Shown here: piece after piece, positions 9,270 to 47,141 of the stretch
Layout: the number at the start of each line of letters is the position of its first letter
How positions within the stretch are numbered: position 1 is the stretch's first letter
NCBI GenBank assembly: GCA_032718475.1
Contig: JAUCBJ010009060.1
Coordinates: 62,001 to 126,000 of the forward strand
Source: Nemertoderma westbladi
Lineage: Eukaryota; Animalia; Xenacoelomorpha
DNA: 64,000 bases
Direction: 5' to 3'
Notes under the pieces: model-generated
The model's database searches: none
What the model saw: the letters and a program-made list of their open reading frames with translations, nothing else
What the model was told of the DNA's origin: nothing
Program-made: the position numbers and the translations under genes

Positions 9270-9302
9270 TTTAGCTGCGCCATAGGTCACCTACGCTCAG
9301 CT

Positions 9303-27119: not shown

Positions 27120-27215
27120 AAGGGAGGGCAAGGGTGGACGGAAGACTCGTGAGCCTTTCTTATGATTTGTGATTTATTTGAATTATATTTATATTTAGTA
27201 AGTTTTGTATTCTGG

Positions 27216-28117: not shown

Positions 28118-28204
28118 GGTTCAGTAGCTCAGTCGGTAGAGCGTTGGAAATTATATGTGTAGTAGGTATTGAGTTCGAATCCTAGTAAGTGCGAATTATT
28201 TTTT
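28118..28204 (+). ncRNA. tRNA-like Pol III cassette in LTR2
   Basis: Identical to 13062-13148. Confidence 0.7.
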
Positions 28205-28261
28205 GTGCAGAATTTCAACTCATTTAAATTAACCGCTACAAATTAATTGCATTTGTCTGTA

Positions 28262-28521
28262 CCAATGAGACTGTAGTTATTTGATTGTAACCAATGTCGT
28301 GCAAGTTATATATTAGCTGGACCAATAGCTATCTTTAAAAACCTGTTAGAACCTATAGAACAATCGAGAATTTTCTCGATTGATTGCAGCACAAATTTGC
28401 TATATAAAGGTGCGATTTGTTCATTAGTTATACCTCTCAGATTATCTTATCTTATCAATATTCTGTCGTGCTTAGTTTATTTCAGATTACATTGTATTAT
28501 AATTATATCTTCTGTAATAAA
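28262..28521 (+). promoter_or_regulatory. LTR Pol II promoter and polyadenylation signal
   Basis: CCAAT at 28262, 28291 and 28322; TATATAAA at 28401; Inr-like TTAGTT about 25 bp later; AATAAA at 28516. Confidence 0.65.
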
Positions 28522-30686
28522 GTCAGAATTATCGCTAATCTGCTTTTCTATCTGTTTTACCATGATTCACTACGGTGAACCCAACCTAAGGGACAGGATG
28601 GCCGGCTAGAGATCGGGCCGCAGCAATGAACGGGAACATCGGGGGAATGTAGACCAGAGACAACCCGCAATACCATCTTGAGTTATTCGCCCATCGCCTG
28701 AAAGGTTAGACAGCGTTCGACGCCTTGCTACCTAAGTGTAAGACCAAAAGATCAAAAGGTAGAAGTAGTGACACGCTGTGAGCCTAAAATTACATCTTAG
28801 GGACTGTACTGTCTTGATTCAGGAAAAACCACAGTAGACCTTCATATTCCTACGGGGGGGAGAGGGAAAGAGCAGGCAGATACTAGTACGCAGATAGGAC
28901 GTAGGCACACCGGTACGAAGCATACAAATTGGTAGGGTGCAGCAAACTGTACGCCTAACTCTTGCTAAGTGCAGGTGTGTGTGCGACTATTTGTAGTACG
29001 ACAGTGTCCATTGCATTAGAACTTGTAGGCTAGGGGGGTTGCTGTGTTTTCACCTGAATTGGGATTGTACCGTTCAGGCGGTAGGGCAGTTTACAGCTAG
29101 GCGCAAATAAATTGAGGCTATTAGGGATACTAACATCTACCGTGTCCCCGCCAACGCCCTAATAGGAAGTTACCCGGACTACCTGGGTGACTAAAATTCT
29201 AGATAGGAGCCAGGATAGCTATTAGTAACTGTACGCCTACAGTAGTAAACTAACACATCTCTTCTTAGTATCAGGGACCTGGTACCTAAAATTGCCGAAT
29301 TCTGGGCGTAGCATTAACCTTATGCCTGAATTTGAGTCCTGGAAATACGCAAGAGGGGAAGGAACCTTATCATTCGTGAGTATTGGACCTACAAGTTACA
29401 AAATTAGAATATTCGTAAAATGCACACCGTACCCAGTAATTATATATGTGAAGGAGCAAAACTGTTTTTGACCGTTCAGAATTAACACACGCGCGTTAGA
29501 AATTATTTACACCTCAAAATATATAAAATTAACTTTCGTCCTTACTGTGCTTTGCCCGCTAGTTAGACATCTCCAAATCTCTGCCTGTACCTAGCTAGCG
29601 TCCCTTCGCCCAACCATATAAATCACACCGCGGCAAAGTATACGAGCCCCTTAGTCCGTCAGTGAGTCAGCCTGATTTTAGGATTCGCTGCGCGGGATTT
29701 TGTTTTATCGAAGTTTGTCTGCTCGTAGACTGTTTTCTGCCTCACCGGTTATAAGAGATCGATACTGCAATATATTCGCTTACTTAGAGTTTACTGTTTT
29801 GGTGAGAAGGTCGGATTTATGATTTGATTCACAAACTTTACAGTAGGATATTGCAGGTATTGTTACTGTCTCTTCGAATAGTAGGAATATGTTTTACTGA
29901 ACTACGGTTCGGTAGGACTAAAGTTATTTGAAAATTTTGTATTTTGAGGTAAAAATTTATATTTGATTAGCTAAGTGCTAATTTTTTGAAATAAAATTTG
30001 ATTTGAACCGCGTGTAAAATATTTTGGAATTGAATACCGGTGTTTAAAAGGGTTTAAATACCATATTGTACCGGTACAAAATTTTCGTAAAGTAAAACCT
30101 AACTCTTTTGTTTTTCAGGATTCAGAACTCATTTCTAGACTGTAACGGGAGCAAGACCGTGTTTAGCAAGTTTGGGAGATAGATAACTCAACAACTTTGG
30201 TTGGGAAAATCGCGCTTCGTCCGCAACGTTAAAAACGGAAAGGTTCACGTCCGGTTTGTATCTGGGAATCTGTTTTTCTGGAGAATTATTGGAGTGGGTG
30301 AGTTCGAAAAGTTGCATAAATAAGTTAGGCATTACCGTATTAGTTAAAATTATTGTGGGTTCCACTGTCTCAAGTATTTATGCATTCCGTATGATTTCTT
30401 TGTTCATTGCTGAATTAGTCCGTATTATTGTATTTAATTTACCTTTTGATAACGCATATCGTTATCCGATTTATTTGTTATAAAATTGGCCGCTAGGCTA
30501 ATTTTATTATATACTTATTCCGTGACATTTATTTGCTGTAAAATTGGCCGTTTAGGCTAATTTTATCCATCTGCTATAAAATCGGCCGGTAGGCTAATTT
30601 TATATGACTGTAATTAGTACCGTTTAGATAAACTACGGTAAGTTTGATACTTTGACACTCACTTTACTTGACTTACAACTACCGAA

Positions 30687-33600
30687 ATGAGTGACAAACA
30701 AGACTATACGAAAAATACACAAACCGACTATGACTCATGCGACGGAGATAAGTCAGCAGCGGAAGAACAACAGGGGAAGACTCGCGAGCCTACCGAACCT
30801 ACACCGTGTGCGTCACCAGTACATCCAACGGGAGTACCGGATGCCGTAGTACGAGGCGACGGCAGGACCGAGGACTTTCTAACTGTTCCGCAACCTAGAT
30901 ACAGGGAAACGGACATGGTAAGTTCAGTAGGAAGCCAGGAGAGCGTGGTTAGAAGCGTCGGTGGATACATGGCGCATATTACCAGGAGTATTGGAGAAGG
31001 CCAACGCATATTAGACGGGTTGACCGCTCCGATGTCTCGATTCGAGTTCTACACCCTCCAGGTTAGAGTACAGAGTAAAGTATATAAGTCCGTAGATAAT
31101 CTAGTTGGCCTACAAGATCTAGCTAGACAGAGACAGGACATGGATACTCAACTTAGAATCCTCGAGAAACTAATGATCGCTAGAGAGAAACTGATTCAGT
31201 TTAAGTCGACGATTAGACAGATACAACAGGAACAAGCGGACCAGTTGTTAGGTGAGTCAGTTTCGGACGAATTATTACAGCCCGAGGAAGAACAGGAACT
31301 GTACCGACTGGATGGACAATTGAAACATCTGACGGACCACTTACGTATGTGCGGCGAGGATGTCGGAGATTGGGAAACCGTGCCGGAATATACGAGGGAA
31401 ACTTCACCCGTACGAATCGAATCGGCACCGGGAATACTGAATCAATCACTGGTGAGTATTCGCAGCGAGATTAACGAGGTAAGCATGGTCACGTCAGAAG
31501 TTGCTCGACAACAGCAACAGTTCTACAGACAGCAACACGAGATGGAAGAACAAACTCAACTGCTAATGATACAAACAGCGGTAGAGGAAGAGAAAATACG
31601 TGTTGCGAATGTAGCGAGAATCTCTCATCTGCAGGAACAAGCCGAACTCGAAGCGGCCGAAATGGAAAGGTTAGAGTTGGACATTGCCCAACAAGCGGCA
31701 GCGGCCGAGTTAGCGCAACGAACGGCAACAGCCGAGTTAGAGCGACAAACGGCAGCGGCAGCGGCAGCGGCCGAGTTAGAGCGACAAACGGAAGCGGCAG
31801 AGTTAGAAAGAAAAAGGTTAGTTTCAGAAGCCAGAGTCGAGATGAAGACACGGCAAATAAAAGCCCAACAAGCGATACGACAAGCAGAGTTCGAGGCGCA
31901 ACAACAACAAACGGAACAACGAGAAAAGGAAGTTAAACTTCGTTTCGAACTTGAGAAAAGGGCGAGAGAATTAGCCGAAACCAAGGAAAATCTGGATCTT
32001 CTAGCCCGTGATCGATCGATGAGATCTCGTGACGGACATGATTTGGACCAGATAGAGGTAAGGCACCGCCAAATCCAGGAACGACTAAAGGAAGGTTCGA
32101 TAGGAGCACCTGGACGGGAACGACAATTAGTAAAGGACTTATGTCAAAGATTCCCTCAAGTAACCCCTATGTTCGCACCAGTTACAACTAAGGAACCTGT
32201 TTCGATTGCGGGTAGTAGTGATATTTCTCCTATCCATGGTGCGACGGAACACAGGTTTGTTATTCCGGACAAGTTTACACCGCCAAGAGCAACGTCGTCG
32301 CCTATTCCGAAAGTCAAGGTAAGTAACCCGCCGATTACGGATCGTAGTAGTTTGTTGACTGGACCTGCACTACTGACGACTAAACAGGTGAGTCCACCGT
32401 CGACACCTAAACCCGTTACACACTACGCTTACCCAATGACGTTTCGACCTACAAGGCCGGTAGATTCAAATGCTGTCATTCGCCCACCGGTTCAGTTTAC
32501 ATCGCAATCTACGACTTCGAGGAAGACTTGTGAGCCTACCGAACAACGGAGACCAGTGGATACGCGACCGTTCAACCAGTTTACATCGCAATCTACGACT
32601 TCGAGGAAGACTTGTGAGCCTACCGAACAACGGAGAACAGTGGATACGCGACCGTTCAATCAGTGTACATCGCAATCTACGACTTCGAGGAAGACTTGTG
32701 AGCCTACCGAACAACGGAGACTAGTGGATACGCGACAGTTCAACCAGCGTGCATCGCAATCTACGACTTCGAGGAAGACTTGTGAGCCTACCGAACAACG
32801 GAGACTAGTGGATACGCGACAGTTCAACCAGTTTACATCGCAATCTACGACTTCGAGGAAGACTTGTGAGCCTACCGAACAACGGAGACTAGTGGATACG
32901 CGACAGTTCAACCAGTTTACATCGCAATCTACGACTTCGAGGAAGACTTGTGAGCCTACTGAACAACGGAGACTAGTGGATACGCGACAGTTCAACCAGC
33001 GTGCATCGCAATCTACGACTTCGAGGAAGACTTGTGAGCCTACCGAACAACGGAGATCAGTGGACGATGTTACGAAACGAAACGTGAGAATTCGTACGAC
33101 GCAACGGACGCGAGCACATCGACCTCCATATCCAGATGATAGTAGTACTTCGAGCGAATCGGATTACCCGAAACGCGAGGTATTTAGAACAGGGGCGGCC
33201 GATGAATATAAACGCGAGCGTTCAGACAACTCCTTTATAGACAATCCTCCACAGAATACACCAACACAGAAGGCGTTACAACCAACGGACGCAATCAGTA
33301 CTCAACAATTCGCCGACATCATGCGACCAGTTGTTAACAAGTTGGCTCAGATCGAGGAGCGTCTGGAGGAAGTTCAAACCGATAGTTCGAGGAACACTGA
33401 ATTCGAACACAATAGACACCCGAAGGAACCACAAAGACCGGTACCTTCAAAACACCCATCGTATCAGGGAAAAGCGCCAAGAAGGGATATCAACCAGATT
33501 ACCAACCAAGGACGCGAAACTCTGAACGTTGCCGAGGAGATAGCGAAATTCGCAGCCAGACAGGGATTGCCGGTGCAACAACCACCGAAGTTTTCTGGTA

Positions 33601-36600
33601 GCTCAAAACACTGGCATACATTCGTAGACTATATCGAATCTCAGATCGCCGTGTGCGCCTTTACATCACGGGAGAAGTTTAATTACCTGCTTCAAACGTT
33701 GTCAGGAGAACCTAAACGTTTGGCAGAGACCTTCGTTGGTGTACCGGACGCCTTCGAACTAGCGTACGATCGTTTAACTTCGATATACGGAGGTACAGTC
33801 AGTATGGCCAGGTCAGTAATAGAGGAACTCTGTAAGGGAGGGGCTATTACTAAACCCGTCGACTTATTAAAACTGGCTGACGAGATAAGGAACGCTATCA
33901 CTACTTTAAGATCCATTGGACAACTTGACTACGGGAATACCCCTACAGTCCTATTAAAGATCATAGGACGACTCCACCATCGACTTCGTCGGGAGTGGAG
34001 AAAGATCGAATACCAGCGAGAAGAGCGGGGTGGATTCTTAAAACTGGAGGATGTGTACCTTTTGATATCCAGGGAGGCAGTAGTAGAAACTCGATCCAAC
34101 TACACTGACCAGCACATCGTGGCAGAAGGAATCACATTGCCATCCTCCAACCGGCAAAAACCCCAGACAACATCCACTAAGACGGCCACTTACACCACAC
34201 CAACGGAATCACGACAATTCTCGGACGGTAGTAGGGTATCTGCGCCCATTGGGATAAAACAGACGAGACAACAACTCAGTACCGACTTCAGCGGCTGCCA
34301 ATACTGCGAGCATCTAGGCAAGCGGTATATCGGTCACAAGTTGAGGGGTTGTCGACAGTTTCGCGAGTTGAACTCGGAAGAACGACGGCTGCAGATACGG
34401 CCACTGGACTCTTGTTGGCGGTGTACGCGACACGGACACGTTCGCAAGGATTGCCCAAATACCGACACTTGTCCATCCTGTGGACGCAACCACGACGGTC
34501 TGCTCCACACAGACAGCCACACGCCGACAAAACGCTTCGCCAGAGAACACCCGGAAGCAGCAGCGAGATGTGATGCGGCCTACAGAAAACGAGAATCGAA
34601 AACGACTCCAACCTTCGTGACCCATATTGAGGATTGCTTCTCAGAACAATCCGGATCGTCGGACGAAGAGTTAGAAGACGACGACGAATATTCCAATGGA
34701 GACGAACAACCGTCGATCGCGCTTCTGACCACTGACCAACTGAAGGGATTCAGTGTAATCCCGATTAAGATTACTGGCACAAAGGGGAGTAAGAGAATTT
34801 ACGCGATCCTTGATTCAGCCTCATCCCACAGCTATGTGGACGAAAAGATAGCTGACGTCGTGACGGATCTCAAACAAGGTAAGCGCGTCAGTTACACCGT
34901 GAGTAGTATGCACGGACAGCGTGCAATACCAGTGACACGAGTCAAGTTAAACTTAGACTCTCTTCTTCCGAAATCGCAACACAGCGAGAGGGAGAGGTCT
35001 TTGTTACCCTTCAAGGATTTGACCTTTGCGGCCACCAAAGACTTTAGTAACTTACTAGGTCCGGTCCCAGAACAATCCTTGGAGGACCGTAAGTATTTCA
35101 GACACCTTGGTGTACCCGAATGTCCTGTCAATTATAGATCGGTAGCCATGCTGATCGGGACAGACCAATTCAACCTACACCAAGTGTGGGAAACCAGACC
35201 ATCGGCAGTTGTAGCGGGAAACGCATACGCCTGCAGAACGCCGATAGGGTGGTATACTCGAGCGCCTGTGCGCACACTAAACGTAAGTGACGAGGAAGAC
35301 GATGTACAAAGTACATGTAGTTTACTAACTACAAATTCAATCCATTCCTTTTCACACGATGTGGACCATACTACACTACAGTCGACAAAACATGACAGAC
35401 GTGTAACTAGTATGATAAGTAGTCACAAGGAGCAGCTAATCCACAAGGTGAGTTTAGAACTTGGGGAGAAGACGAGTCAGCTAGAGATTCCATCGACGAC
35501 AGATGATAGGCTTGCGAGTCTACCTACCCCAACAACCTCAACAATACCCATCGATATCGATGATGACGTGTTGAGAAATCATCAAGTGGAACAAGCTGCA
35601 CTGGACAAAGAATTAACGGAGAAGACTATCAGGTGGTTAGAACAAGATACAGCTGAACCTGGTAGCTACGAACCTTGTATGTCGGAACAGGAGAAACAAG
35701 CTCTGAAGATCATGGAAGATACTATCCGCCAGACGAAAGACGGACATTATGAGGTGGGGATGTTATGGCGTAGCCAAAGTCCTAAACTTATAAACAACTA
35801 CCCACTGGCTTTAAGACGTCTACACTCAATACGGCAACGTCTATTAAAGGACGAGAAAGCCCATCTGCAGTACAACACTCAGATGGAGACGTATTTGACT
35901 AAGGGATATGCTATCCGAATGACTAACCCAGAGATAGTGACTAACCAGACATACTACCTGCCACATCACTATGTGAGACATCCCGACAAACCAGATAAAG
36001 TACGTGTAGTCAATGATTGTGCGGCTCTATTTGAGGGAATGTCCCTCAATAGTGAGTTGATGGATGGACCAAACATGAATAATTATCTTATGGGGGTGAT
36101 TATGCGCTTCCGTCAGCGTCAAGTAGCCTTTACTTGCGACGTTGAAGCGATGTTTCACCAAGTGAAAGCGTTAGAGCGAGACAGAGACAGTTTGCGGTTC
36201 CTCTGGTATCCGGAAGGAGACTTAAGTCTACCACCAGCGACTTACCAAATGCAAGTTCGCGTTTTCGGTGCCAGAGACAGCCCAAACTGCACGATGTACG
36301 CCCTAAAACAAGCCGCTAGAGATCAGAAACACCTATATGACCCAGAGATAATTAGGATTGTGGAGCGTGACTTTTACGTTGACGACGGTTTACAGAGTTG
36401 CGACACAGTAGAACGTGCTACAACAGTAGCACATCAATTACGGGACTGCTTAGCGGGCGGAGGTTTTAACCTCACCAAATTCGCCTCAAACAGTGCCGAA
36501 TTAGTAGACTCATTCGGAACGACTGAGCGTGGAGGTGGTGACATAGACCTAGAGTTCGAACCACTACCGACGACCAAGGTGTTGGGGCTCTTTTGGGACC

Positions 36601-39600
36601 CAAACACGGACAACTTCCGAGTGAAGGTGAGACTGGACAGTCAAGAGAACACACTGACAAAGAGATCATGCTTGTCAAAATTGAGCCGATTGTTCGATCC
36701 GTTAGGATTCATCAGTCCAGTGATACTGCAAGCCCGCATTTATATGCGCAGTATTTGGAAGGTTGGACTAACATGGGACGAGCCGATCTCATCAGACCAA
36801 GTGGACTTATGGAAGACCTGGGAGGCGGAATTATCTTCGCTAGAGGATTATTCCATACCCAGAGTTTACTTTCCATTACAAACTACATTTCCTGACAACT
36901 TGGAATTACATTGTTTTTCTGACGCCAGTGACAACGGTTTTGGTGTGGCAGCGTACTTGCGCAGACAAGTAGACTCAGAAGCATTCGATGTTTCGCTCAT
37001 TACTTCTAAGGCAAAAACAATGCCTACTAAGTATATGACGACACCACGAGCTGAGCTACAAGCCGCAACCCTGTCAACCACCATCGTGAACCTTATACAG
37101 ACAGAATTACAGTCAAGTTTACAGATATTTTATTGGACTGACGCGACGTTGGTTTTATTTTACATAAACAACGACACACTTGAATTCAAGACATTCGTAG
37201 CTAACCGTCGCGCAGAAATTCTAGACCGTTCAATAAAAGAGGATTGGCGACATTGTCCCGGACCACAAAACCCAGCTGATATTGCGTCGCGAGGAATGAT
37301 GCCCGAGGAATTCTGTAAACCGGAAAACAAAGAATTTTGGCAACACGGACCCCAATTCTTGCAGAAATCGACACAAGATTGGCCTCCGTTATACGACAAC
37401 AAATCTAATACTATCCCTAAGGACGCCGAAATCAAGAAACCAAAAAAGGGGAAGGCAAAGAAAAAGACGACGGCGACAAAACTCAAGAAAAAACCGAAGG
37501 CGAAATGGAAAGATATAACTTCAAAGGTCAAGAGAGGAAGACTTGCGAGCCTTTCTACACCAGACATATCGCCAGACGGTCAACCAGACACGTTACTAGA
37601 CGATCAACCAGACGTTTTGCCAGACATATCACAAAATGTTCTACCAGACACTAGTGACATACTGACAAACAGTAAAGCCGCAGTTTCCCTATTGGAGCGG
37701 CCTTCTATTGACAAACAACCAGATGCGTTACCAGACGTATCACCAGACACATTACTAGACGGTCAACCAGACGTTTTGCCAGACATATCACAAAATGTTC
37801 TACCAGACACTAGTGACATACTGACAAACAGTAAAGCCGCAGTTTCCCTATTGGAGCGGCCTTCTATTGACAAACAACCAGATGCGTTACCAGACGTATC
37901 GCCAGACACGTTACTAGACGGTCAACCAGACGTTTTGCCAGACACGTCACTAGATAATTCGCCGGATGTTCCGCGAAACATTTTACCAGACATGTCACAA
38001 AATGTTCTACCGGACATTAGTAATGTATCGACTAACAGTAAAGCCGCAGTTTCCCTATTGGAGCGGCCTTGTATTGACAAACTACCAATTTTGACACACT
38101 TGAGCAACCATAAGCATGGTGAAACCTCATGTATTACAGATGTGGGTAGTACCTACGCTAATGTAAATACAGGTGTTACTTTGCGCTCAAGAGACATACC
38201 GAACTTGCAACCTATGGTGAGACCTGGGATTAATGTCGGCAGAAAAATAAGTTTACCGAAACCTGCTGACCCCATAGAGTTCAAACCACCATTAACGATC
38301 GACTTACAAAGTACCGACAATCAAGGTAAGAAGACGAAGAAGGACAAATTACTTGTAGACCCGGACGGATCAACAGTCAACAAGGGAATACTTACCGGCG
38401 GACCCGTGGGCCCTTCTAGTAATTCAAAACCTTCCAAAATCTCCATTGACTTACCTGATGACGTCACAAATACTCACATCGACCGGATTGTAAACTTAAC
38501 AGACTCTTGGACAAACGCTTGCCGAAAATTAGCGTGGATTGTACGTTTCGTACAATACGTTAAAGGCAAACGTGACTTTACACGTCGACTTACATTGGCT
38601 GAGATTGACAGGTGTGAGATTAAATTAATTCGCCATTACCAACTGCGATATTTCGCGCGCGAATTCACATCTATAAATCAAGGTCAACCAATCAAGTCGT
38701 CACCAATACTGAGTTGGAGTCCGATTATTTATAATGGCTTAATTTGTCATAAATCACGGCTTCAAAACATTGACTTTAACACAAACTTTAGATACCCAAT
38801 AATAATACCCCAACATCACAAACTACAACGTGCAATGATACTGGACGCACATTTACATCTGAAACATGCTGGAAGACACCACTGTCTTTCTTACTTACGT
38901 ACAAGATTTGTATTGATTAGACCTAGTAAAGCGTTAAGTTCAGTGACACGTACGTGTATTATTTGTAAAAAGGTACATTCTAGAATAGGTACCCAAGAAA
39001 TGAGTGAACTACCACAAGCACGACTTCAAGCATTCAGACCACCTTTTACAGAGACTGGAATTGATTGCTTTGGTCCCATACATACGAAACGTGGACGTAT
39101 ACTAGTAAAACGCTGGGGACTGATTTTCACATGTATGTCCAGTAGGGCAGTTCATATTGAACGTGTGATGGATCTTTCCACCAACGCGTTTATACTAGCA
39201 CTGCGGCGATTTATCGCTAGACGCGGACTAGTAAAATGCTTGTACTCAGACCAAGGGACAAACTTTGTTGGTGCTCGGAATGAGATTGCTAGAGCTTTTA
39301 AGAAATTAGATCATGATCAAATCTCGAACGAACTACAACCTCACAAGATTGTTTGGAAGTTTAATCCTCCAGATAGTCCTTGGAGAGGCGGAGTCTGGGA
39401 GAGACTGATTAGATCTATAAAGACAGCCATGGCAAAGGTCATTCCAGTAAACCACATATTGACAGACGACCAACTGACAACACTGTTTGTTGAAATCGAG
39501 GCAATACTAAATACTAGACCAATAGTATTAGTACCCGATGACAAACAATCTCAGTTTGCTTTGACACCGGCACACCTGCTTATGCAGGCACCGACCACAT

Positions 39601-39986
39601 TGACACCTATTTCTATTCCAATAGAAAGCGACAGCTACGGTAGAAAAGCGTGGAAAATCACGCAACTACTGGCTAACAAATTCTGGGAAATATGGCAAAA
39701 CCATTATTTGCCCTCTATTTCTGCCAGAACAACTTGGTATAATAACACCCGCGCATTAAAGCCGGGAGATCACGTGCTGTTAGCGGAAGTGAATCTAAAA
39801 AGACGCTTCTGGATAACAGGTGTAATTTTAGCCACACATCCATCTATGGATGGAGTGACAAGAACTGTGACGGTACGGACAATTGACGGTCGTACAGTAG
39901 ACAGACCGACTCAACGTCTCGTACTTCTTGAAGAGACTCATAACGAGTCTGGAGACTACAAATCTCCACCTAATACTAGTAAATAA
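30687..39986 (+). CDS. Intact BEL/Pao Gag-Pol polyprotein, 3099 aa
   Basis: Coiled-coil N-terminus; DUF1759-like capsid; BEL triple Cys/His (CQYC..H..C, CWRC....H....C, CPSC...H...LH); protease LDSAS; RT YLPHH, DVEAMF, FGARDSP, YVDD; RNase H FSDAS, PRAEL, WTD, NPADIASRG; integrase HHCC, DCFGP, SDQGTNF, GGVWE. Confidence 0.96.
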   Translation: MSDKQDYTKNTQTDYDSCDGDKSAAEEQQGKTREPTEPTPCASPVHPTGVPDAVVRGDGRTEDFLTVPQPRYRETDMVSSVGSQESVVRSVGGYMAHITRSIGEGQRILDGLTAPMSRFEFYTLQVRVQSKVYKSVDNLVGLQDLARQRQDMDTQLRILEKLMIAREKLIQFKSTIRQIQQEQADQLLGESVSDELLQPEEEQELYRLDGQLKHLTDHLRMCGEDVGDWETVPEYTRETSPVRIESAPGILNQSLVSIRSEINEVSMVTSEVARQQQQFYRQQHEMEEQTQLLMIQTAVEEEKIRVANVARISHLQEQAELEAAEMERLELDIAQQAAAAELAQRTATAELERQTAAAAAAAELERQTEAAELERKRLVSEARVEMKTRQIKAQQAIRQAEFEAQQQQTEQREKEVKLRFELEKRARELAETKENLDLLARDRSMRSRDGHDLDQIEVRHRQIQERLKEGSIGAPGRERQLVKDLCQRFPQVTPMFAPVTTKEPVSIAGSSDISPIHGATEHRFVIPDKFTPPRATSSPIPKVKVSNPPITDRSSLLTGPALLTTKQVSPPSTPKPVTHYAYPMTFRPTRPVDSNAVIRPPVQFTSQSTTSRKTCEPTEQRRPVDTRPFNQFTSQSTTSRKTCEPTEQRRTVDTRPFNQCTSQSTTSRKTCEPTEQRRLVDTRQFNQRASQSTTSRKTCEPTEQRRLVDTRQFNQFTSQSTTSRKTCEPTEQRRLVDTRQFNQFTSQSTTSRKTCEPTEQRRLVDTRQFNQRASQSTTSRKTCEPTEQRRSVDDVTKRNVRIRTTQRTRAHRPPYPDDSSTSSESDYPKREVFRTGAADEYKRERSDNSFIDNPPQNTPTQKALQPTDAISTQQFADIMRPVVNKLAQIEERLEEVQTDSSRNTEFEHNRHPKEPQRPVPSKHPSYQGKAPRRDINQITNQGRETLNVAEEIAKFAARQGLPVQQPPKFSGSSKHWHTFVDYIESQIAVCAFTSREKFNYLLQTLSGEPKRLAETFVGVPDAFELAYDRLTSIYGGTVSMARSVIEELCKGGAITKPVDLLKLADEIRNAITTLRSIGQLDYGNTPTVLLKIIGRLHHRLRREWRKIEYQREERGGFLKLEDVYLLISREAVVETRSNYTDQHIVAEGITLPSSNRQKPQTTSTKTATYTTPTESRQFSDGSRVSAPIGIKQTRQQLSTDFSGCQYCEHLGKRYIGHKLRGCRQFRELNSEERRLQIRPLDSCWRCTRHGHVRKDCPNTDTCPSCGRNHDGLLHTDSHTPTKRFAREHPEAAARCDAAYRKRESKTTPTFVTHIEDCFSEQSGSSDEELEDDDEYSNGDEQPSIALLTTDQLKGFSVIPIKITGTKGSKRIYAILDSASSHSYVDEKIADVVTDLKQGKRVSYTVSSMHGQRAIPVTRVKLNLDSLLPKSQHSERERSLLPFKDLTFAATKDFSNLLGPVPEQSLEDRKYFRHLGVPECPVNYRSVAMLIGTDQFNLHQVWETRPSAVVAGNAYACRTPIGWYTRAPVRTLNVSDEEDDVQSTCSLLTTNSIHSFSHDVDHTTLQSTKHDRRVTSMISSHKEQLIHKVSLELGEKTSQLEIPSTTDDRLASLPTPTTSTIPIDIDDDVLRNHQVEQAALDKELTEKTIRWLEQDTAEPGSYEPCMSEQEKQALKIMEDTIRQTKDGHYEVGMLWRSQSPKLINNYPLALRRLHSIRQRLLKDEKAHLQYNTQMETYLTKGYAIRMTNPEIVTNQTYYLPHHYVRHPDKPDKVRVVNDCAALFEGMSLNSELMDGPNMNNYLMGVIMRFRQRQVAFTCDVEAMFHQVKALERDRDSLRFLWYPEGDLSLPPATYQMQVRVFGARDSPNCTMYALKQAARDQKHLYDPEIIRIVERDFYVDDGLQSCDTVERATTVAHQLRDCLAGGGFNLTKFASNSAELVDSFGTTERGGGDIDLEFEPLPTTKVLGLFWDPNTDNFRVKVRLDSQENTLTKRSCLSKLSRLFDPLGFISPVILQARIYMRSIWKVGLTWDEPISSDQVDLWKTWEAELSSLEDYSIPRVYFPLQTTFPDNLELHCFSDASDNGFGVAAYLRRQVDSEAFDVSLITSKAKTMPTKYMTTPRAELQAATLSTTIVNLIQTELQSSLQIFYWTDATLVLFYINNDTLEFKTFVANRRAEILDRSIKEDWRHCPGPQNPADIASRGMMPEEFCKPENKEFWQHGPQFLQKSTQDWPPLYDNKSNTIPKDAEIKKPKKGKAKKKTTATKLKKKPKAKWKDITSKVKRGRLASLSTPDISPDGQPDTLLDDQPDVLPDISQNVLPDTSDILTNSKAAVSLLERPSIDKQPDALPDVSPDTLLDGQPDVLPDISQNVLPDTSDILTNSKAAVSLLERPSIDKQPDALPDVSPDTLLDGQPDVLPDTSLDNSPDVPRNILPDMSQNVLPDISNVSTNSKAAVSLLERPCIDKLPILTHLSNHKHGETSCITDVGSTYANVNTGVTLRSRDIPNLQPMVRPGINVGRKISLPKPADPIEFKPPLTIDLQSTDNQGKKTKKDKLLVDPDGSTVNKGILTGGPVGPSSNSKPSKISIDLPDDVTNTHIDRIVNLTDSWTNACRKLAWIVRFVQYVKGKRDFTRRLTLAEIDRCEIKLIRHYQLRYFAREFTSINQGQPIKSSPILSWSPIIYNGLICHKSRLQNIDFNTNFRYPIIIPQHHKLQRAMILDAHLHLKHAGRHHCLSYLRTRFVLIRPSKALSSVTRTCIICKKVHSRIGTQEMSELPQARLQAFRPPFTETGIDCFGPIHTKRGRILVKRWGLIFTCMSSRAVHIERVMDLSTNAFILALRRFIARRGLVKCLYSDQGTNFVGARNEIARAFKKLDHDQISNELQPHKIVWKFNPPDSPWRGGVWERLIRSIKTAMAKVIPVNHILTDDQLTTLFVEIEAILNTRPIVLVPDDKQSQFALTPAHLLMQAPTTLTPISIPIESDSYGRKAWKITQLLANKFWEIWQNHYLPSISARTTWYNNTRALKPGDHVLLAEVNLKRRFWITGVILATHPSMDGVTRTVTVRTIDGRTVDRPTQRLVLLEETHNESGDYKSPPNTSK
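32493..33066 (+). repeat. 84-bp (28-aa) in-frame repeat in gag, 7 copies (3 in copy 1 at ~17440-17675)
   Basis: QFTSQSTTSRKTCEPTEQRRLVDTRQFN units. Confidence 0.95.
37560..38085 (+). repeat. Pro-Asp-rich repeats with a 159-bp duplication between RNase H and integrase
   Basis: QPDVLPDISQNVLPDTSDILTNSKAAVSLLERPSIDK... at 37604 and 37763; copy 1 has one fewer unit. Confidence 0.85.
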
Positions 39987-40647
39987 TTAGGAGTTCACAA
40001 ATAGATTTCCACGTACCTGTACACCGTAGTAAGGACAGCGGTAGAATTCCATTGTCTTTATATGTGAACATTGAGGGTAGTACCCTTATGTGTCACATAG
40101 GAGCGGGATTTGTAGGTATAAGAAATGGAATTCTACTTGGAACTCACAATATTGAGACATTTTCGAAATTTTAGACAATCCATTTGGATTTGAAAAATTT
40201 TTAAATTTTCTCCAGTGAATAGATTTCAGGGTACAGTCGGGTGGAACTTAAAATTAGAGAAACAAGAGAGGAAGACTTGCGAGCCTTTCTTAAAAATTTT
40301 AATTAAATTTTACACGGTCTTGTTTCAATAAGTTACGTCAAAAAATAGACTCCCCTGTATTTATTTCTAATTCTTGATTGCTTATTTTCTGATAATAGTT
40401 TGGGATCAAAAAGTGAGTATTTTAGACTCACAGCCAGTTTAGCCCAAATTCGTTTTTATTTCGGCAAAAAATTTTAGATAAGAAGCAGCGTGTCATTAAA
40501 GAAACCCTAGATCTTAGGCTATGGGTAGGAGGTTAGAGCGTTGTCGAGCCCAAAGGGCAGACGAAACTCTCACGTCTCCTCACAACTAACTACAAACTCT
40601 GTTGTATTCCCTCTAGTAGTAATGATTATGTAACTACACCCCTAATT

Positions 40648-43600
40648 ATGGAGAAAGGGATACAAGGAGAGCCGAGATGGGGATATGATATCCAAGAGGA
40701 GGCAGCAGCGCCATTCGAAAGATTTGGAGCCAAGGATTATACTATATTCGGTATAAAAGAATTATCGGAAAGTACAGCGAAACTCGCGAGAACTAAATAT
40801 GACTCAAATGTATTAAAGAGAAGGCAAAACGCATTAAACGAAAGAATCGAAAGTTTGCGCCAAACCTTCAACGAACTTTACCCGTACGACACTTTATGTG
40901 ATACGGGAGATATTTGCGAAGACCCCGACACTGAAATTAGTCGTTTGTATCATACCATGCAATACCTGAAGGCGCACGAACCTATGCCCGCGGTAAGAGA
41001 TGAATTCGATGGAATGCATCTTTACAGACGAACTCGAGGGGACGATAGAGAAACCAAGGAAGCATTTTCAGTTTATAAACTTTATTATCAATGCGGTTCT
41101 TGTATGCGCGAACAACGAAATGCGATTCCAATGCGTTTGAATAAGGAAAATCCCGAACCGATATTGGCGAGGTGTTCGAACCATCAACAACTACGCTACC
41201 AGGAAGGAGGGTATCCTTTATCGAATCCATATCATTCATTTGCTATGACCGGACCAAAGGCGGGAGAAACTGTCATTTACCCACCTAAGGTTGTTGAACC
41301 CGATGTATTTGAACTTACGCTGGACGAGGCAAATCAGTCAACCCGCGAAAAGAAAGAAGCTCTTAGCCTATACAGAGCCTACAAGGCTTTCGAGAAAGGT
41401 GAGATGGAAGAATGGGGTGGAAGACTCGCGAGCCTACCTTGCCATTGGACGTCACACGATCAAACTCCAGCTAAGGAGATGACACCGGAAGTTTTCGAGA
41501 GCATAAACTTTGCTCAAAACGTTATTCAGAGACTACAGATTGCATCCCCGGAGAGGACAAGAGAAATGCAACCGTATAGTACTTCAACTACGAAACCATT
41601 GAGTACGACACTCAACTTTCCTATTAGTATACCAGTCCGACAGGATACGACGTACGAAATACCCATCGTGGATCATCCAGAAATCATTTCAAACTTGGAG
41701 TTTCTTCCTGCAGTTGTTTTCAGTGATATGAGTAAGATATATGATTTACGTAGACATATTACTCAAAAGGTCGTGTACAACGTTCCACCTCATATTCAAG
41801 ACTTCAAGGAACTGGATAGAGCTGGTGCCGATATAGCTCCGAGTAATTTGAAGGGATATTTAACCAAGACGATTCGTTTATGGATTGGAACCGGAACCTT
41901 CGAGTCGGATACAGATATTGCCGCGGATTGGCGAGGTAAGGTTATTAGCTTCGAAGATGATAAGGATATAGAGAAGATTTGGCAACCTTCGGAAGAATTG
42001 TTGGACGAATGGAATAGAACGTTTAGATCGTTTCAGGAAAATGGTTACATGTTTTACGATAACGAGGGCGGCAGTCATCAGCAGAGTTTGACTTCTAAGA
42101 CTATACAGATTAGAGCGGCGGACGGAGTCTTGCACGTTTTCAGTAGACAGAGGAGCGACAAACGAATGCCGATACCTCCAGCGAATACAAAGCGACACCA
42201 TCTTATCACCGACATAGTAAAGAAGATGGACCAAGCTTGTAATATTGACGCTAGAATGTTACCGAAGATGGTAAGAAACATGATTTTAGATAAAACTGTT
42301 GTAAAGATTGGATCAGGAGTAAGGGAGGACTTAATTAGCGACTTCGCCGGCATGACGGACAGCGATGACCGACTACCGACACCTTACGTCGACACTCGAC
42401 CTCTTATTTTGTGGTCTATAGAACAGGGATATTTTCGTGAGTATAATACTCAGAAGACTGGAACTGGATACATTTCCTACCTGTTATTCAATTGGGATTA
42501 TAAGGAAAATAAGAGAAACAAGTATATTGAAACTTATGGAGAAGGTGATACTCCAGATATGAGTGAGTTTGAATCACAGCTTAAATGGAGAGGATGCGTG
42601 TATTGGGCTATTACGTCACCTCCAAGAGCGGTCTTACAATATTATTTAGCAATAGAGTCGTCAGTGAATGTTTGCCTAATCGCCGACATTGTGTCTCGGA
42701 CTCTCAAAAGACATCCACTTTGTCTCGGAGAAGATCATACTTTCTACATGGAAGGGAGAATTCGTACCGACGTGTTTAGACAATTCCTTGAACCCTTCTA
42801 CAACTCCGACGCTCAGTGTAATGCCTTTACTCGAGCAGGATTTAGTATATTTCGAGACGTGTATCTTCGCTGTGCGGGATCTCTTATCGAAAGACCATCT
42901 ATGTTTACATTGTTACCCTATGAAGGAGAACGTATCGTGGAGATTACGGAAGAATCACGGCAGACGCGCGCGCCTATCGGTCACCTTGGTGATGATTTCG
43001 AAGTAACTACTACGATCGCTGACGATCCTTTAGAGGAACTTCTTGAGATAGAAAGGAACCTCCCGAAGAAATCTCAGATGGAGATTCGACAACTTGAAGC
43101 AACAGATGCTATAGTTTGTATACAACCTTCAGATACCTACCAACCCATAGACCCAGATGATTACGATTATAGTATGGGAGGAAGCACTCGACCGATTGGA
43201 GATCTTATATACGAACGAGTGTGGTACCCTGCCAATACGATGTGTAGTAAATGTGGCGTCGCTGGACATCATATGACAAAGTGCAGTGGAAAGCACATTA
43301 CTACGACTCAGCTAATCTGTGGATGGTGTGGGGATCAAGGGTCTCATACCTTTTATACTTGCTGGAGATTTATGGCTCAATGTACTTATTGCAATATAAA
43401 AGGACATCGAGCATCTGAATGCCAACTAAGAGACATACCTTATGAACACGAATCTGTAAAACTCGTGAGGAAGTTATTTGATGAGTGGGAAGATTTAGCC
43501 GACGAACATGTATCGGCACAAAGAAGACGGTTTCCGATGAGAGCGCATCTCGGATTTTGGGCGGTAAATCCTCAAACGATGATGTCGGAAGGATATATCT

Positions 43601-44373
43601 CCGCTATGCCCCAATATGACGAACTTATCGAGGTAGTCGATATTTTGCCCCACGACAGCGGATTCCGAGTAGTGCGCGAGTATCTACTACAGATTCACCC
43701 GGATAACAAAAACACGTGGAATTTTCAGAAAGTCGTTAATCGCATTACGTATGGTGAATTCGATCGTTTCCGAACTGAAAGGCGGAATAAAGGAGCTTGG
43801 TTAACCGTTGCATGGGCGTACCGAGCCGCGTTTTACCATAAACGTATACGAGCGAGCGTATTCGAGGAAGAAGAGGTCCTAGAGGCGACAAATATACCAG
43901 CCACTCCGGTTGCGCCGTCTGCACGTCACCCTCGGGAGGACGGACAGGGTAGGATCATACGGGTCCAGAAAGTGGGCCAACAATTAAAGAAAATTATTAA
44001 TATAGAAGAACGCAAGGGAGTTGAGCCGACCATTCGAGTTACTCGGGATACGGTATCGCTTCCTAGAGAACCAGTAGGAGGATCGGGACATACACCAGCT
44101 GATCAACAGGGGGCGCAAGCTACTCTTGGGTCTGCGTCGTCCGCTTCTCGCGCGTTCCCAGACGTTCTACCAACTGTAGTGACAACTGATCGGTCACGAG
44201 GAATCGGTCGAGGTTTTGGGATGCCAAATAGACGAATTTGCGAGGAAATAGTCGCACCGTCTCTCAACGTCCAAACGAAACCAGTGACTCGCCCCACGAG
44301 TCCCATATCGCGAGCAAAGTCACCTGTGCGCAGTTTTCGAGGACGCGGCAGGGCTCGATCCACTAAGCGATAA
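40648..44373 (+). CDS. Accessory ORF2, 1241 aa: putative Zn ribbon, DEDDy 3'-5' exonuclease-like domain, three CCHC-type zinc knuckles and a basic disordered tail
   Basis: ExoI FYDNEG (D471, E473) followed by TIQI..LHVF; ExoII LPKMVRNMILDKTVVKIGSGVRED (D561); YVDT; ExoIII-like YW...QYYLAIE (Y666, E670). Knuckles CSKCGVAGHHMTKC, CGWCGDQGSHTFYTC and CTYCNIKGHRASEC at 43243-43422. Confidence 0.85.
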   Translation: MEKGIQGEPRWGYDIQEEAAAPFERFGAKDYTIFGIKELSESTAKLARTKYDSNVLKRRQNALNERIESLRQTFNELYPYDTLCDTGDICEDPDTEISRLYHTMQYLKAHEPMPAVRDEFDGMHLYRRTRGDDRETKEAFSVYKLYYQCGSCMREQRNAIPMRLNKENPEPILARCSNHQQLRYQEGGYPLSNPYHSFAMTGPKAGETVIYPPKVVEPDVFELTLDEANQSTREKKEALSLYRAYKAFEKGEMEEWGGRLASLPCHWTSHDQTPAKEMTPEVFESINFAQNVIQRLQIASPERTREMQPYSTSTTKPLSTTLNFPISIPVRQDTTYEIPIVDHPEIISNLEFLPAVVFSDMSKIYDLRRHITQKVVYNVPPHIQDFKELDRAGADIAPSNLKGYLTKTIRLWIGTGTFESDTDIAADWRGKVISFEDDKDIEKIWQPSEELLDEWNRTFRSFQENGYMFYDNEGGSHQQSLTSKTIQIRAADGVLHVFSRQRSDKRMPIPPANTKRHHLITDIVKKMDQACNIDARMLPKMVRNMILDKTVVKIGSGVREDLISDFAGMTDSDDRLPTPYVDTRPLILWSIEQGYFREYNTQKTGTGYISYLLFNWDYKENKRNKYIETYGEGDTPDMSEFESQLKWRGCVYWAITSPPRAVLQYYLAIESSVNVCLIADIVSRTLKRHPLCLGEDHTFYMEGRIRTDVFRQFLEPFYNSDAQCNAFTRAGFSIFRDVYLRCAGSLIERPSMFTLLPYEGERIVEITEESRQTRAPIGHLGDDFEVTTTIADDPLEELLEIERNLPKKSQMEIRQLEATDAIVCIQPSDTYQPIDPDDYDYSMGGSTRPIGDLIYERVWYPANTMCSKCGVAGHHMTKCSGKHITTTQLICGWCGDQGSHTFYTCWRFMAQCTYCNIKGHRASECQLRDIPYEHESVKLVRKLFDEWEDLADEHVSAQRRRFPMRAHLGFWAVNPQTMMSEGYISAMPQYDELIEVVDILPHDSGFRVVREYLLQIHPDNKNTWNFQKVVNRITYGEFDRFRTERRNKGAWLTVAWAYRAAFYHKRIRASVFEEEEVLEATNIPATPVAPSARHPREDGQGRIIRVQKVGQQLKKIINIEERKGVEPTIRVTRDTVSLPREPVGGSGHTPADQQGAQATLGSASSASRAFPDVLPTVVTTDRSRGIGRGFGMPNRRICEEIVAPSLNVQTKPVTRPTSPISRAKSPVRSFRGRGRARSTKR

Positions 44374-45244
44374 AAGGGAGGGCAAGGGTGGACGGAAGAC
44401 TCGTGAGCCTTTCTTATGATTTGTGATTTATTTGAATTTATATTTATATTTGTGTTTATTCCGAACTTAAGCAATTTGTATTGTTCCGAATTTATGAAAT
44501 ACGACTTATATTTAGTAAGAATTTATATTTGTAAGAATTTATATTTTATATTTGTAATTATTTAGAACTTATGCAATTTATATTATTTCGAACTTATGCA
44601 ATTTATATTATTTCGAACTTATGCAATTTATATTATTCCGAACTTATGCAATTTATATTGTTCCGAATACTATGCAATTTATATCTTATAAGCAGTATTT
44701 GTATTTACAGTGAAATAGAAAGTAAGAGTAGATGGAAGACTCGTAGGCCTTTCTTATAGTTTCACTTGTAAAGTGTTATATTTTGTATTTAGAAAGTTTT
44801 ATAGATAGAAAGTTTTGTGCTTAGAAAGACTCATATTTGTAATTATTCCGAACTTATGCAATCTACATTTAGGTACGAAAGTATTTGTAATTACTTGAAT
44901 TTATGCAATATTTGAGATGCAATAGTAGATGGAAGACTCGCGAGCCTTTCTTATTGTTTTCATTTATTTGTATTTGTAATTACTTGAATTTATGCAATAT
45001 TGAGATGCAATAGATTTATATTGGTGAATTTAATTTAGATTTATATTGTACTTACTTAGTAAAGCTTTAAATACGTAAAGTTTGAATTTGTAATTATTTG
45101 TATCGAATCATTACGTAGAAAGGAAGTATTATTTGAAATTTAATTGTAAATATGTAAGTACGCCCTAAGTGTTCTATAGTTTGATTGATTATTGGTGAAA
45201 ACCGTATATTTTATGCACGATAATATCCTGTTTTCATGGAGCGG

Positions 45245-47141
45245 TATAGAATTATATTCTCTAAATGCCGTGGATTTTCAAAATTTTATTTTATTCGAAT
45301 TAACTTTGTAAAAGATTGCTTTGAATCCTCATTTGTATTTGTTATATCGCCTATCGGTCAAGTGGTTCAGTAGCTCAGTCGGTAGAGCGTTGGAAATTAT
45401 ATGTGTAGTAGGTATTGAGTTCGAATCCTAGTAAGTGCGAATTATTTTTTGTGCAGAATTTCAACTCATTTAAATTAACCGCTACAAATTAATTGCATTT
45501 GTCTGTACCAATGAGACTGTAGTTATTTGATTGTAACCAATGTCGTGCAAGTTATATATTAGCTGGACCAATAGCTATCTTTAAAACCTTGTTAGAACCT
45601 ATAGATCAATCGAGAATTTTCTCGATTGATTGCAGCACAAATTTGGTATAAAAGGGTGCGATTTGTTCATTAGTTATCTTTCTCATCTATGCTTCTCAGA
45701 TTATCTTATCTTATCAATATTCTGTCGTGCTTAGTTTATTTCAGATTACATTGTATTATAATTATATTTTCTGTAATAAAGTCAGAATTATCGCTAATCT
45801 GCTTTTCTATCTGTTTTACCATGGATTCACTACGGTGAACAAACCTAAGGGACAGGATGACCGGCTAGAGATCGGGCCGCAGCAATGAACGGGAACATCG
45901 GGGGAATGTAGACCAGAGACAACCCGCAATACCATCTTGAGTTATTCGCCCATCGCCTGAAAGGTTAGACAGCGTTCGATCCTTGCTACCTAAGTGTAAG
46001 ACCAAAAGATCAAAAGGTAGAAGTAGTGACACGCTGTGAGCCTAAAATTACATCTTAGAGACTGTACTGTCTTGATTCAGGAAAAACCGCAGTAGACCTT
46101 CATATTCCTACGGGGGGGAGAGGGAAAGAGCGCAGGCAGATACTAGTACGCAGATAGGACGTAGGCACACCGGTACAAGGCATACACATTGGTTAGGGTG
46201 CAGCAAACTGTACGCCTAACTCTTGCTAAGTGCAGGTGTGTGTGCGACTATTTGTAGTACGACAGTGTCCATTGCATTATAACTTGTAGGCTAGGGGGGT
46301 TGCTGTGTTTTCACCTGAATTGGGATTGTACCGTTCAGGCGGTAGGGCAGTTTACAGCTAGGCGCAAATAAATTGAGGCTATTAGGGATACTAACATCTA
46401 CCGTGTCCCCGCCAACGCCCTAATAGGAAGTTACCCGGACTACCTGGGTGACTAAAATTCTAGATAAGAGCCAGGATAGCTATTAGTAACTGTACGCCTA
46501 CAGTAGTAAACTAACACATCTCTTCTTAGTATCAGGGACCTGGTACCTAAAATTGCCGAATTCTGGGCGTAGCATTAACCTTATGCCTGAATTTGAGTCC
46601 TGGAAATACGCAAGAGGGGAAGGAACCTTATCATTCGTGAGTATTGGACCTACAAGTTACAAAATTAGAATATTCGTAAAATGCACACCGTACCCAGTAA
46701 TTATATATGTGAAGGAGCAAAACTGTTTTTGACCGTTCAGAATTAACACACGCGCGTTAGAAATTATTTACACCTCAAAATATATAAAATTAACTTTCGT
46801 CCTTACTGTGCTTTGCCCGCTAGTTAGACATCTCCAAATCTCTGCCTGTACCTAGCTAGCGTCCCTTCGCCCAACCATATAAATCACACCGCGGCAAAGT
46901 ATACGAGCCCTTTAGTCCGTCAGTGAGTCAGCCTGATTTTAGGATTCGCTGCGCGGGATTTTGTTTTATCGAAGTTTGTCTGCTCGTAGACTGTTTTCTG
47001 CCTCACCGGTTATAAGAGATCGATACTGCAATATATTCGCTTACTTAGAGTTTACTGTTTTGGTGAGAAGGTCGGATTTATGATTTGATTCACAAACTTT
47101 ACAGTAGGATATTGCAGGTATTGTTACTGTCTCTTCGAATA
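45245..47141 (+). repeat. BEL LTR-containing direct repeat 3
   Basis: Homology ends at CTCTTCGAATA (47141); no TSD matches the left flank. Confidence 0.85.
45364..45450 (+). ncRNA. tRNA-like Pol III cassette in LTR3
   Basis: Identical to the other two copies. Confidence 0.7.

Follow-up and report, generated by a model that had tools for sequence, protein, structure and literature searches.

Why would a retrotransposon carry the same 20-nt sequence again and again through its genes and non-coding DNA, and leave it out of its long terminal repeats (LTRs)? The question is raised by a 64,000-nt stretch of Nemertoderma westbladi contig JAUCBJ010009060.1 (the window), which carries two tandem copies, units 1 and 2, of a ∼19-kb BEL/Pao LTR retrotransposon (self-alignment: three 1.9-kb direct repeats and two internal regions). 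Cis signals of LTR retroelements normally lie in the LTR or the leader. A first-pass annotation had described a dispersed hairpin motif in this element and suggested that it serves as a packaging, export or dimerisation signal, or as a binding site for zinc knuckles. The motif is real and unusual, and its function probably lies between two models, a tag on the element's RNA and a site on its DNA. A family-specific 20-nt tag running through gag, pol, an accessory open reading frame (ORF2) and untranslated regions (UTRs) would, if true, be a new layout; in those parts of the open-access literature that we consulted, no account of a motif scattered through the interior of BEL/Pao elements came up.

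The motif is confined to the internal regions

The motif pattern was scanned on both strands of the whole window with ≤3 mismatches and compared with 100 dinucleotide shuffles; the counts hold for these 64 kb. There were 33 matches at 27 places (shuffles: mean 0.01, maximum 1). The match was exact at 20 of the 27 and lay on the sense strand at 26. All 27 sites fall inside the two internal regions, and the claim that the LTRs lack the motif was borne out at all three. The best score with a position weight matrix (PWM) was −4.0/+1.9 bits in LTR2, 1.9 bits in the 5′ leader and ≤8.6 bits in the window flanks, all at background level; true sites score 18–35 bits. The sites are as follows.

30775..30794, plus strand: motif in the Gag N-terminal extension, KTREPT frame
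32521..33044, plus strand: motif in each of seven 84-nt Gag tandem repeats (starts 32521, 32605, 32689, 32773, 32857, 32941 and 33025)
35505..35524, plus strand: motif variant in the protease–reverse transcriptase (PR-RT) linker, with positions 6 and 15 exchanged, which may be read as an inverted copy
37536..37555, plus strand: motif in the RNase H–integrase (RH-IN) linker, GRLASL frame
40270..40289, plus strand: motif between pol and ORF2, non-coding
41419..41438, plus strand: motif in the N-terminal part of ORF2, GRLASL frame; region deleted in unit 1
42959..42978, plus strand: degenerate motif in ORF2 between the nuclease-like domain and the knuckles, positions 8 and 13 changed (U-A to G-C)
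44394..44413, plus strand: motif, 3′ UTR copy a
44734..44753, plus strand: motif, 3′ UTR copy b, 2 mismatches
44931..44950, plus strand: motif, 3′ UTR copy c
15722, 17468, 17552, 17636, 20123, 22154, 24733, 25705, 27140, 27478 and 27675, plus strand: motif starts in unit 1

The coordinates in the first-pass annotation were correct throughout, except that the PR-RT variant starts at 35505 and not at ∼35508. This site matches the pattern on the minus strand only (2 mismatches), whereas its unit-1 partner at 20123 matches on both strands (2 mismatches); upstream of it, unit 2 is 9 nt shorter than unit 1. The 42959 site (25705 in unit 1) was absent from the earlier list. It scores 20.7 bits, a value reached in 0 of 500 shuffled 15-kb regions (1 of 100 in another run).

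The "about 15 dispersed copies" reported earlier are indeed dispersed, but they are not independent. The 84-nt Gag repeat occurs seven times in unit 2 and three times in unit 1, and since all ten sites copy one repeat, unit 2 has 10 contexts: the Gag N-terminus, the Gag repeat, the PR-RT linker, the RH-IN linker, the intergenic site, two in ORF2 and three in the 3′ UTR. Six are coding and four non-coding, and the total drops to 8 if the three 3′-UTR sites share one origin. Sites are spaced 0.2–2.7 kb apart, and the largest gap between contexts is below that of random placement (P = 0.008 with 8 contexts, 0.047 with 10, 0.035 without 42959).

Two reading frames (KTREPT/KTCEPT versus GRLASL) and non-coding DNA all accommodate the motif, and at the GRLASL-frame sites the chance that codon choice would fit it is ∼0.002 per site (P). 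The proposal of a nucleic-acid-level motif is thus upheld. Coding sites outside ORF2, which is itself orphan-like, occupy positions where just 0–16 of 120 homologs align (lineage-specific linkers). The edges of the motif are sharp, with flank identity near chance in most site pairs, and the 3′-UTR copies are identical at 17–19 of 20 positions versus 9–12 of 20 in their flanks. Longer sharing also exists: 28 nt are common to 37536 and 40270, 24 nt to 30775 and the Gag repeat, and the UTR copies likewise share more than the motif.

Direct tests of selection inside the window are weak. Between units the motif has 1 substitution versus ∼4 expected, which is not significantly above background conservation. 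One of the eight variable columns of the Gag repeat lies within the motif, as expected for 20 of 84 positions. In contigs from four public sequencing runs, none of the variant rows listed (40 of 474) falls in six motif sites (0.7 expected). Deletion mediated by the motif was considered and set aside; neither the deletion in unit-1 ORF2 nor the joints listed (15 of 48) run from site to site.

The motif is absent from distant BEL elements

The comparison set consisted of 80 BEL loci from metagenomes, 64 of them ≥5 kb and 32 spanning Gag to IN. Their RTs are 37–45% identical to that of the element, they come from other hosts and none has an ORF2 homolog; because of this distance and the lack of ORF2, they test BEL elements in general and not sister families. 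At ≤4 mismatches the 80 loci gave three matches, all with 4 mismatches, and a best PWM score of 15 bits. None of the 64 loci ≥5 kb has an 18-mer in three independent contexts; the same script finds the motif in 8. The motif peptides are missing from all 120 BEL homologs listed. The exact pattern was found in no viral contig and the 22-nt form in no metagenome contig, and scans of viral contigs for related loci yielded none that were kept. These comparisons support a family-specific motif, absent from 80 related, albeit distant, BEL loci.

The motif is a symmetric pseudo-palindrome

The motif had been called a near-palindrome, and it is one: 10–16 of its 20 positions are palindromic, and the columns that are invariant across contexts are mirror-symmetric (1/20, 4/17, 5/16 and 7/14; P = 0.015–0.08). 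Codon position confounds part of this symmetry: in the GRLASL frame, third codon positions fall at 3/18, 6/15 and 9/12. Each half fits the half-site GRWAGRCTYR, and "symmetric pseudo-palindrome" is a better name than "hairpin". In 10 of 11 distinct variants the four letters at the centre read Y-G-Y-G; G10 is invariant, G12 is kept in 10 of 11, and positions 9 and 11 vary between C and U only. With such a centre, self-complementarity is kept through G-U pairs, and so are two guanines like those bound by retroviral knuckles. UGCG forms the centre at three of the 10 contexts. The centre may also resemble N-box, BANP or p53 sites. Of eight changes compatible with one strand (counted by hand), six retain G-U pairing in the sense strand (P = 0.14). 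Predicted energies for the 55 sense duplexes between sites run from −8 to about −25 kcal/mol and average −18.8.

The element encodes two arrays of zinc knuckles

Three Cys-His motifs are encoded in Gag and three in ORF2. The following features were located in ORF2 of unit 2.

∼42052-42660, plus strand: putative RNase-D/DEDD-like domain (weak profile matches)
43243-43422, plus strand: three CCHC-type knuckles

A three-sequence ORF2 profile had the RNA-trimming enzyme TbRND (7C42) as its top match (E = 0.0016), mainly via the knuckles, followed by Lin28. Its nuclease-like part matched EXD2 (E = 0.082) and WRN (E = 0.091) weakly and had no Pfam match at E = 10. By eye, D-x-E, D and Y-L-x-x-(E/D)-like positions align in all three ORF2-family sequences. 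Models predicted with AlphaFold were of low confidence (predicted local distance difference test 30–33), and a fold search with them returned nothing. On these profiles, ORF2 seems to resemble an RNase-D-type exonuclease with three CCHC knuckles. A full-library search found four relatives, two of them with the full architecture and distant; two word-based searches found none. ORF2 (40537-44373) and the two ENA proteins P0124 and P0125 make up a small family, in which the nuclease-like domain and the three knuckles are followed by a conserved F-x-x-x-A-D domain. A basic helix-loop-helix-like N-terminus had no Pfam or PDB support and was rejected. No DNA-binding domain was found in ORF2 or in the N-terminal part of Gag (Gag-N).

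A possible tag on the element's RNA

We tentatively favour a reading in which the motif is a self-recognition tag on the element's RNA, read by its own CCHC knuckle proteins. Selection of some kind probably acts on the motif: it is evenly spaced, its edges are sharp and symmetric, its UTR copies are conserved and relatives lack it. If the motif has a function, an RNA tag gains a slight edge over a DNA site from the Y-G-Y-G centre and the proteins of RNA type. Knuckles bind exposed loop guanines, as described for the UGCG tetraloop of Rous sarcoma virus (RSV; PMC5035970) and the GGUG/GGAG loops of human immunodeficiency virus (HIV; PMC7599994).

A single copy would be too weak for a stable hairpin, yet it is self-complementary. 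We propose that, owing to this self-complementarity, each copy would have two states and switch between them: a hairpin, stabilised by protein and with Y-G-Y-G as its loop, and a duplex formed with any other copy. The Gag nucleocapsid and ORF2 knuckles would hold both loop guanines, and the evenly spread sites would serve as starting points for assembling ribonucleoprotein, aligning dimers and protecting an RNA roughly twice as long as is usual for BEL elements. Short ectopic copying or tandem duplication would supply new copies, which would be retained only at places that the protein can accommodate. The packaging, export or dimerisation role suggested in the first-pass annotation would be plausible. 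A short site and small knuckle domains would also be a ready pair for studying how very long retroelement RNA is recognised.

Several results weigh against this reading. The stable hairpin that had been claimed was not found: predicted hairpin energies of 10 variants were −0.4 to −4.9 kcal/mol (z = +1.1 to −1.2 versus mononucleotide shuffles), and the antisense strand folds more stably in eight of the 10. With 40-nt flanks, stem probability is ≤0.25 at eight of nine sites (with 10-nt flanks it is >0.5 at five of nine). Adding the flanks revealed no structure common to the sites (Stouffer z = +1.6 to −1.7 across six settings); an extended flank stem in register G1-C16 can be drawn for 37536 and 40270 but fails for the set as a whole, and was rejected as a shared structure. 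In 11 distinct rows, 83% of cells pair and two cells are changed on both sides, a covariation score equalled in 113 of 500 shuffles and hence not above control. Watson-Crick pairing never occurs at 6/15. At 20123/35505 the A-C to G-U change, previously taken as support for pairing, amounts to two third-position changes that are synonymous in the GRLASL frame; a swap of half-sites or an inverted copy would also describe it. The stem letters are invariant instead of covarying, which knuckles reading 4–6 nt leave unexplained, and antisense duplexes are as stable as sense ones (mean −19.6 kcal/mol). On the protein side, the TbRND match is carried by the knuckle region, with weak matches (E = 0.08–0.09) in the nuclease region, and mutation of UGCG in RSV is described as leaving specific recognition by full Gag unreduced (PMC5035970). 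The 5′ leader has no motif site. Downstream of position 40200 come six of the 10 contexts, which, judging from the splice-like sites described below, probably belong to a spliced ORF2 mRNA and so would not select unspliced genomes. The CpG excess described next is likewise unexplained by an RNA tag.

CpG enrichment in Gag-N and ORF2

The synonymous CpG odds ratio is 2.7–3.2 in Gag-N and ORF2 (P = 3e-5 to 7e-8) and 0.54–1.1 in RT-RH and IN. CpG is avoided in the window's young Gypsy ORF (0.15–0.19) and in a fragment of a long interspersed nuclear element (LINE; 0.17–0.25); 50 related BEL ORFs have a median of 0.52 and a maximum of 1.11. The new observation here is this synonymous enrichment in Gag-N and ORF2 beside depleted Gypsy and LINE sequences. 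Over the whole internal region the observed/expected (o/e) ratio is 1.17, above all 64 related loci (median 0.74), and CpG mutability between units (0.082 versus 0.043–0.096 for other dinucleotides) gives no sign of hypermutability. With increasing distance from a motif site, CpG o/e runs 1.30, 1.05, 1.20 and 1.08, with no steady fall. The motif-free leader and LTR are not depleted (1.46 and 0.92), nor is a second BEL fragment in the window (0.99), which is site-free over ∼0.7 kb. From enrichment in the BEL element and avoidance in Gypsy and LINE, it appears that the host depletes CpG elsewhere and that this lineage escaped. With CpG content as a proxy for methylation, the missing CpG loss may reflect escape from host silencing; a link between the CpG excess and the motif is something we infer.

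The segments in which synonymous CpG usage is 10–20-fold apart are 30687-33500 and 40648-44373 (BEL) and 4761-9269 (Gypsy) and 3006-3818 (LINE). The Gypsy-like element (4547-9598) has two identical 194-bp LTRs and one 1502-aa ORF. The second BEL family fragment (9603-10220) adjoins it and is 46% identical to the element's Gag over 178 aa.

Rival readings: a DNA site, neutral copying or a peptide signal

A reading not named in the first-pass annotation is nearly as likely as the RNA tag, although on its own we would not call it probable: the motif would be an anti-silencing site at the DNA level, where a dimeric protein (ORF2 or a host factor) on double-stranded DNA keeps the body of the element unmethylated, in the manner of VANC proteins. 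Long symmetric sites with invariant, non-covarying letters are typical targets of dimeric DNA-binding proteins, and the motif has mirror-symmetric invariant columns with each half varying on its own. Its poor folding as RNA, the site that can be read as inverted and the even spacing would also fit, as would the synonymous CpG excess in Gag-N and ORF2 where the window's Gypsy and LINE sequences avoid CpG, the internal CpG ratio above all 64 related loci and the lack of CpG hypermutability between units. Expansion of the Gag repeat that bears the motif (three versus seven copies) is paralleled by VANC targets (PMC5735166). However, ORF2 and Gag-N have no detected DNA-binding domain and the recognisable parts of ORF2 are of RNA type; the LTR promoter is without the motif; CpG o/e does not track distance from a site, and the motif-free leader and LTR and the site-free BEL fragment are undepleted too. 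The relatives used for comparison come from other hosts, the symmetry may in part be that of GRLASL third codon positions, and VANC motifs are dense and non-coding whereas coding DNA holds six of 10 contexts here. An RNA tag would be compatible with anti-silencing, as ORF2 on nascent RNA could serve both. We regard as doubtful the more specific proposal that ORF2 recognises the tag on DNA or nascent RNA and shields its own family from methylation or small-RNA silencing, which would explain the CpG excess. If the motif and ORF2 do avert silencing, they touch on an open question: a 2019 review describes transposon-encoded anti-silencing as known from plants only (PMC6719617).

It is rather unlikely, in our estimate, that the motif is a neutral by-product, a quasi-palindrome prone to template switching that spread by ectopic copying (20–28 nt at a time) and tandem duplication to places where the protein is unconstrained, its copies being kept alike by recent copying or gene conversion. 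Template-switch mutagenesis may produce symmetric double changes. Coding sites are confined to stretches where 0–16 of 120 homologs align, the 28 nt common to 37536/40270 and the 24 nt common to 30775/Gag repeat look as they would after copying, conservation between units is not significantly above background, and the motif columns of the Gag repeat vary at the expected rate (1/8). Copying alone sits poorly with several findings: the palindrome is exactly centred between sharp edges, and for most pairs the flanks match at about the chance level; the sites are spaced more evenly than under random placement; the 3′-UTR copies are conserved amid diverged flanks; and 0 of 64 related loci have a comparable motif. 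Moreover, short direct repeats tend to be deleted during reverse transcription, so that keeping ten would be costly. A signal in the peptide is very improbable. RLASL(P/S), read in the PR-RT linker, the RH-IN linker and ORF2, would be a protease cleavage site or a phospho/14-3-3-type site, with the other copies as passengers; it may resemble R-x-x-S-x-P and L/P cleavage sites. All three sites lie close to or at junctions between domains, RLASLP is preserved despite the 9 nt by which the units differ at the PR-RT site, and variation at the RLASL sites is synonymous apart from the last residue. But seven of 10 contexts are non-coding or in another frame, codon choice under a peptide-only constraint would fit the DNA motif with P ∼ 0.002 per site, and RLASL peptides are missing from all 120 BEL homologs listed.

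Comparison with known systems

The dimer signals of HIV and Moloney murine leukaemia virus (MoMuLV) are described as pseudopalindromes that convert from hairpin to extended duplex (PMC7599994). The retroviral packaging signal and dimerisation initiation sites (Psi/DIS; RSV SL-C; HIV-1 DIS, SL2 and SL3; MoMuLV DIS-1/DIS-2) share with the BEL motif a pseudopalindrome capable of hairpin or duplex (PMC5035970, PMC7599994), a UGCG-like centre with two guanines and cognate CCHC knuckles encoded by the element. They differ, in these accounts, in being few, clustered in the 5′ leader and structurally stable, whereas the BEL motif is missing from the leader, is scattered across 14 kb with coding linkers among its locations, and is weak in predicted folding. 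Off the leader and without a stable stem, the motif stands outside the Psi/DIS class, but it may work similarly.

VANC proteins avert silencing of Arabidopsis VANDAL transposons through a family-specific repeated motif (PMC5735166). As in VANDALs, the motif is short, family-specific, present in many co-oriented copies and multiplied in part by tandem repeats (PMC5735166, PMC6719617); both systems have an accessory ORF and signs of methylation escape, which in our element are possible ones read from CpG content as a proxy. VANDALs, as reported there, are plant DNA transposons with 8–9-nt non-palindromic motifs dense in non-coding DNA, whereas our element is an animal LTR retrotransposon with a 20-nt palindrome at kilobase spacing, mostly in coding DNA, and ORF2 is unrelated to VANC as far as tested. 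Being neither dense nor mostly non-coding, the motif is outside the VANC class; it, too, may act in a similar way.

The nearest precedent in an LTR element, among the sources consulted, is the repeated motifs (RM)/multiple polypurine tracts of Sireviruses. These are also high-copy and palindromic, with a CpG core and an association with CpG-rich DNA, in an LTR retrotransposon with an extra 3′ ORF (PMC2829016). Sirevirus RMs are reported to be concentrated in the LTRs and directly before the extra ORF (PMC2829016), whereas the BEL motif avoids the LTRs and spreads over gag, pol and ORF2, and the hosts differ likewise (animal BEL/Pao versus plant Copia).

For ORF2, the closest parallels are the DEDDy exonuclease 3′ ORFs known in bdelloid LTR elements (Juno/Vesta ORF3), which are 3′ accessory ORFs with RNase-D-like motifs (PMC5408684), and TbRND, a DEDD exonuclease in which the nuclease domain is followed by CCHC fingers that hold RNA (PMC7797062). 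ORF2 is far larger (∼1240 aa) than the bdelloid ORF3, with its nuclease identity resting on weak matches. The text examined on Juno/Vesta describes dUTPase/GPY-F features and does not mention a dispersed motif (PMC5408684). Cer1 of C. elegans is also an LTR retrotransposon with its own cysteine-rich factor, CERV, which acts on its genomic RNA (PMC10309623). Unlike ORF2, CERV is Gag-derived with a C4-type loop and belongs to a Gypsy element, and the portion of the report that we consulted does not mention a repeated cis motif (PMC10309623).

The host element

The array (12935-47141) has the order LTR-internal-LTR-internal-LTR, with the middle LTR shared. Its parts are listed below.

12935..14824, plus strand: LTR1, ∼1.9 kb, starts TAT and finishes ATA, motif-free (self-BLAST)
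14825..27990, plus strand: unit 1 internal region, with damaged gag-pol and ORF2
27991..29880, plus strand: LTR2, common to units 1 and 2, motif-free
30687..39986, plus strand: unit 2 Gag-Pol ORF, 3099 aa, BEL/Pao Pfam domain set
34296..34508, plus strand: Gag Cys-His cluster, three knuckle-like motifs
40537..44373, plus strand: unit 2 ORF2, first ATG at 40648
45245..47141, plus strand: LTR3, motif-free

Unit 2 is 19,151 bp long with both LTRs. Its single Gag-Pol ORF has the order Gag-PR-RT-RH-IN with DUF1759, Pao peptidase A17 and DUF5641 (Pfam), and long lineage-specific insertions at aa 1-∼900, ∼1550-1650 and ∼2250-2600. Three Cys-His motifs in Gag are a BEL/Pao feature. The nearest polyproteins are 36–43% identical in RT/RH and, among the matches listed, mostly 1700–2300 aa long; PF05380 is present in all 120 matches listed of 277. 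Domain order and nearest relatives place the host element in BEL/Pao, with atypical ends and primer site. The ends are TAT...ATA and not TG...CA, and no tRNA-type primer-binding site beginning TGG follows the LTR; TATA ends figure among described LTR variants (PMC8220671). No target-site duplication was seen around the array. The three LTRs differ by 1.8%, 1.6% and 3.2%, which suggests recombination between different copies. The internal regions of the two units are 2.3% divergent (308 of 13,129 aligned sites). Gag-pol of unit 1 is disrupted by frameshifts and one stop, its ORF2 carries a 1717-nt deletion, and gag-pol substitutions between units comprise 138 synonymous and 66 others. Contigs of the four sequencing runs over 38000-45240 reveal a multi-copy family with some members <90% alike. 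Splice-acceptor-like sites with branch points at 30118 and 40616 and donor-like sites at 30918 and 40413 suggest a leader intron and a spliced ORF2 mRNA.

The 11 nt directly after the LTR (29881-29891; also at 14825) are unlike a tRNA primer site. They are exactly complementary to stretches in LTR2 (28843-28853) and LTR3 (46101), with one mismatch in LTR1. The complementary stretch sits at an initiator-like sequence, with AATAAA at 29106. In Tf1 the self-priming stretch is also 11 nt long, and Tf1-type self-priming is possible in this BEL/Pao element. This mode is described in PMC4600332.

An Rfam scan of 10000-48000 gave three sub-threshold chance matches, none at the motif, and ARAGORN called no tRNA. 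A tRNA-like sequence with A-/B-box-like segments, uncalled by ARAGORN, lies in U3 at ∼28110-28195 and at the same place in LTR1 and LTR3. Shortly before gag, the 5′ leader contains three to four copies of another short motif (∼30485-30600). Downstream of the array, a minimal hammerhead-ribozyme-like core (∼47325-47420, by eye and folding) has CUGAUGA at 47359 and a 7-bp outer stem; it lies between A-box-like and B-box-like sequences, is unreported by Rfam and recalls hammerhead repeats resembling short interspersed nuclear elements. Beyond it are a 22-nt satellite of ∼531 copies and a second 22-nt array (47711-59328 and 62968-63932).

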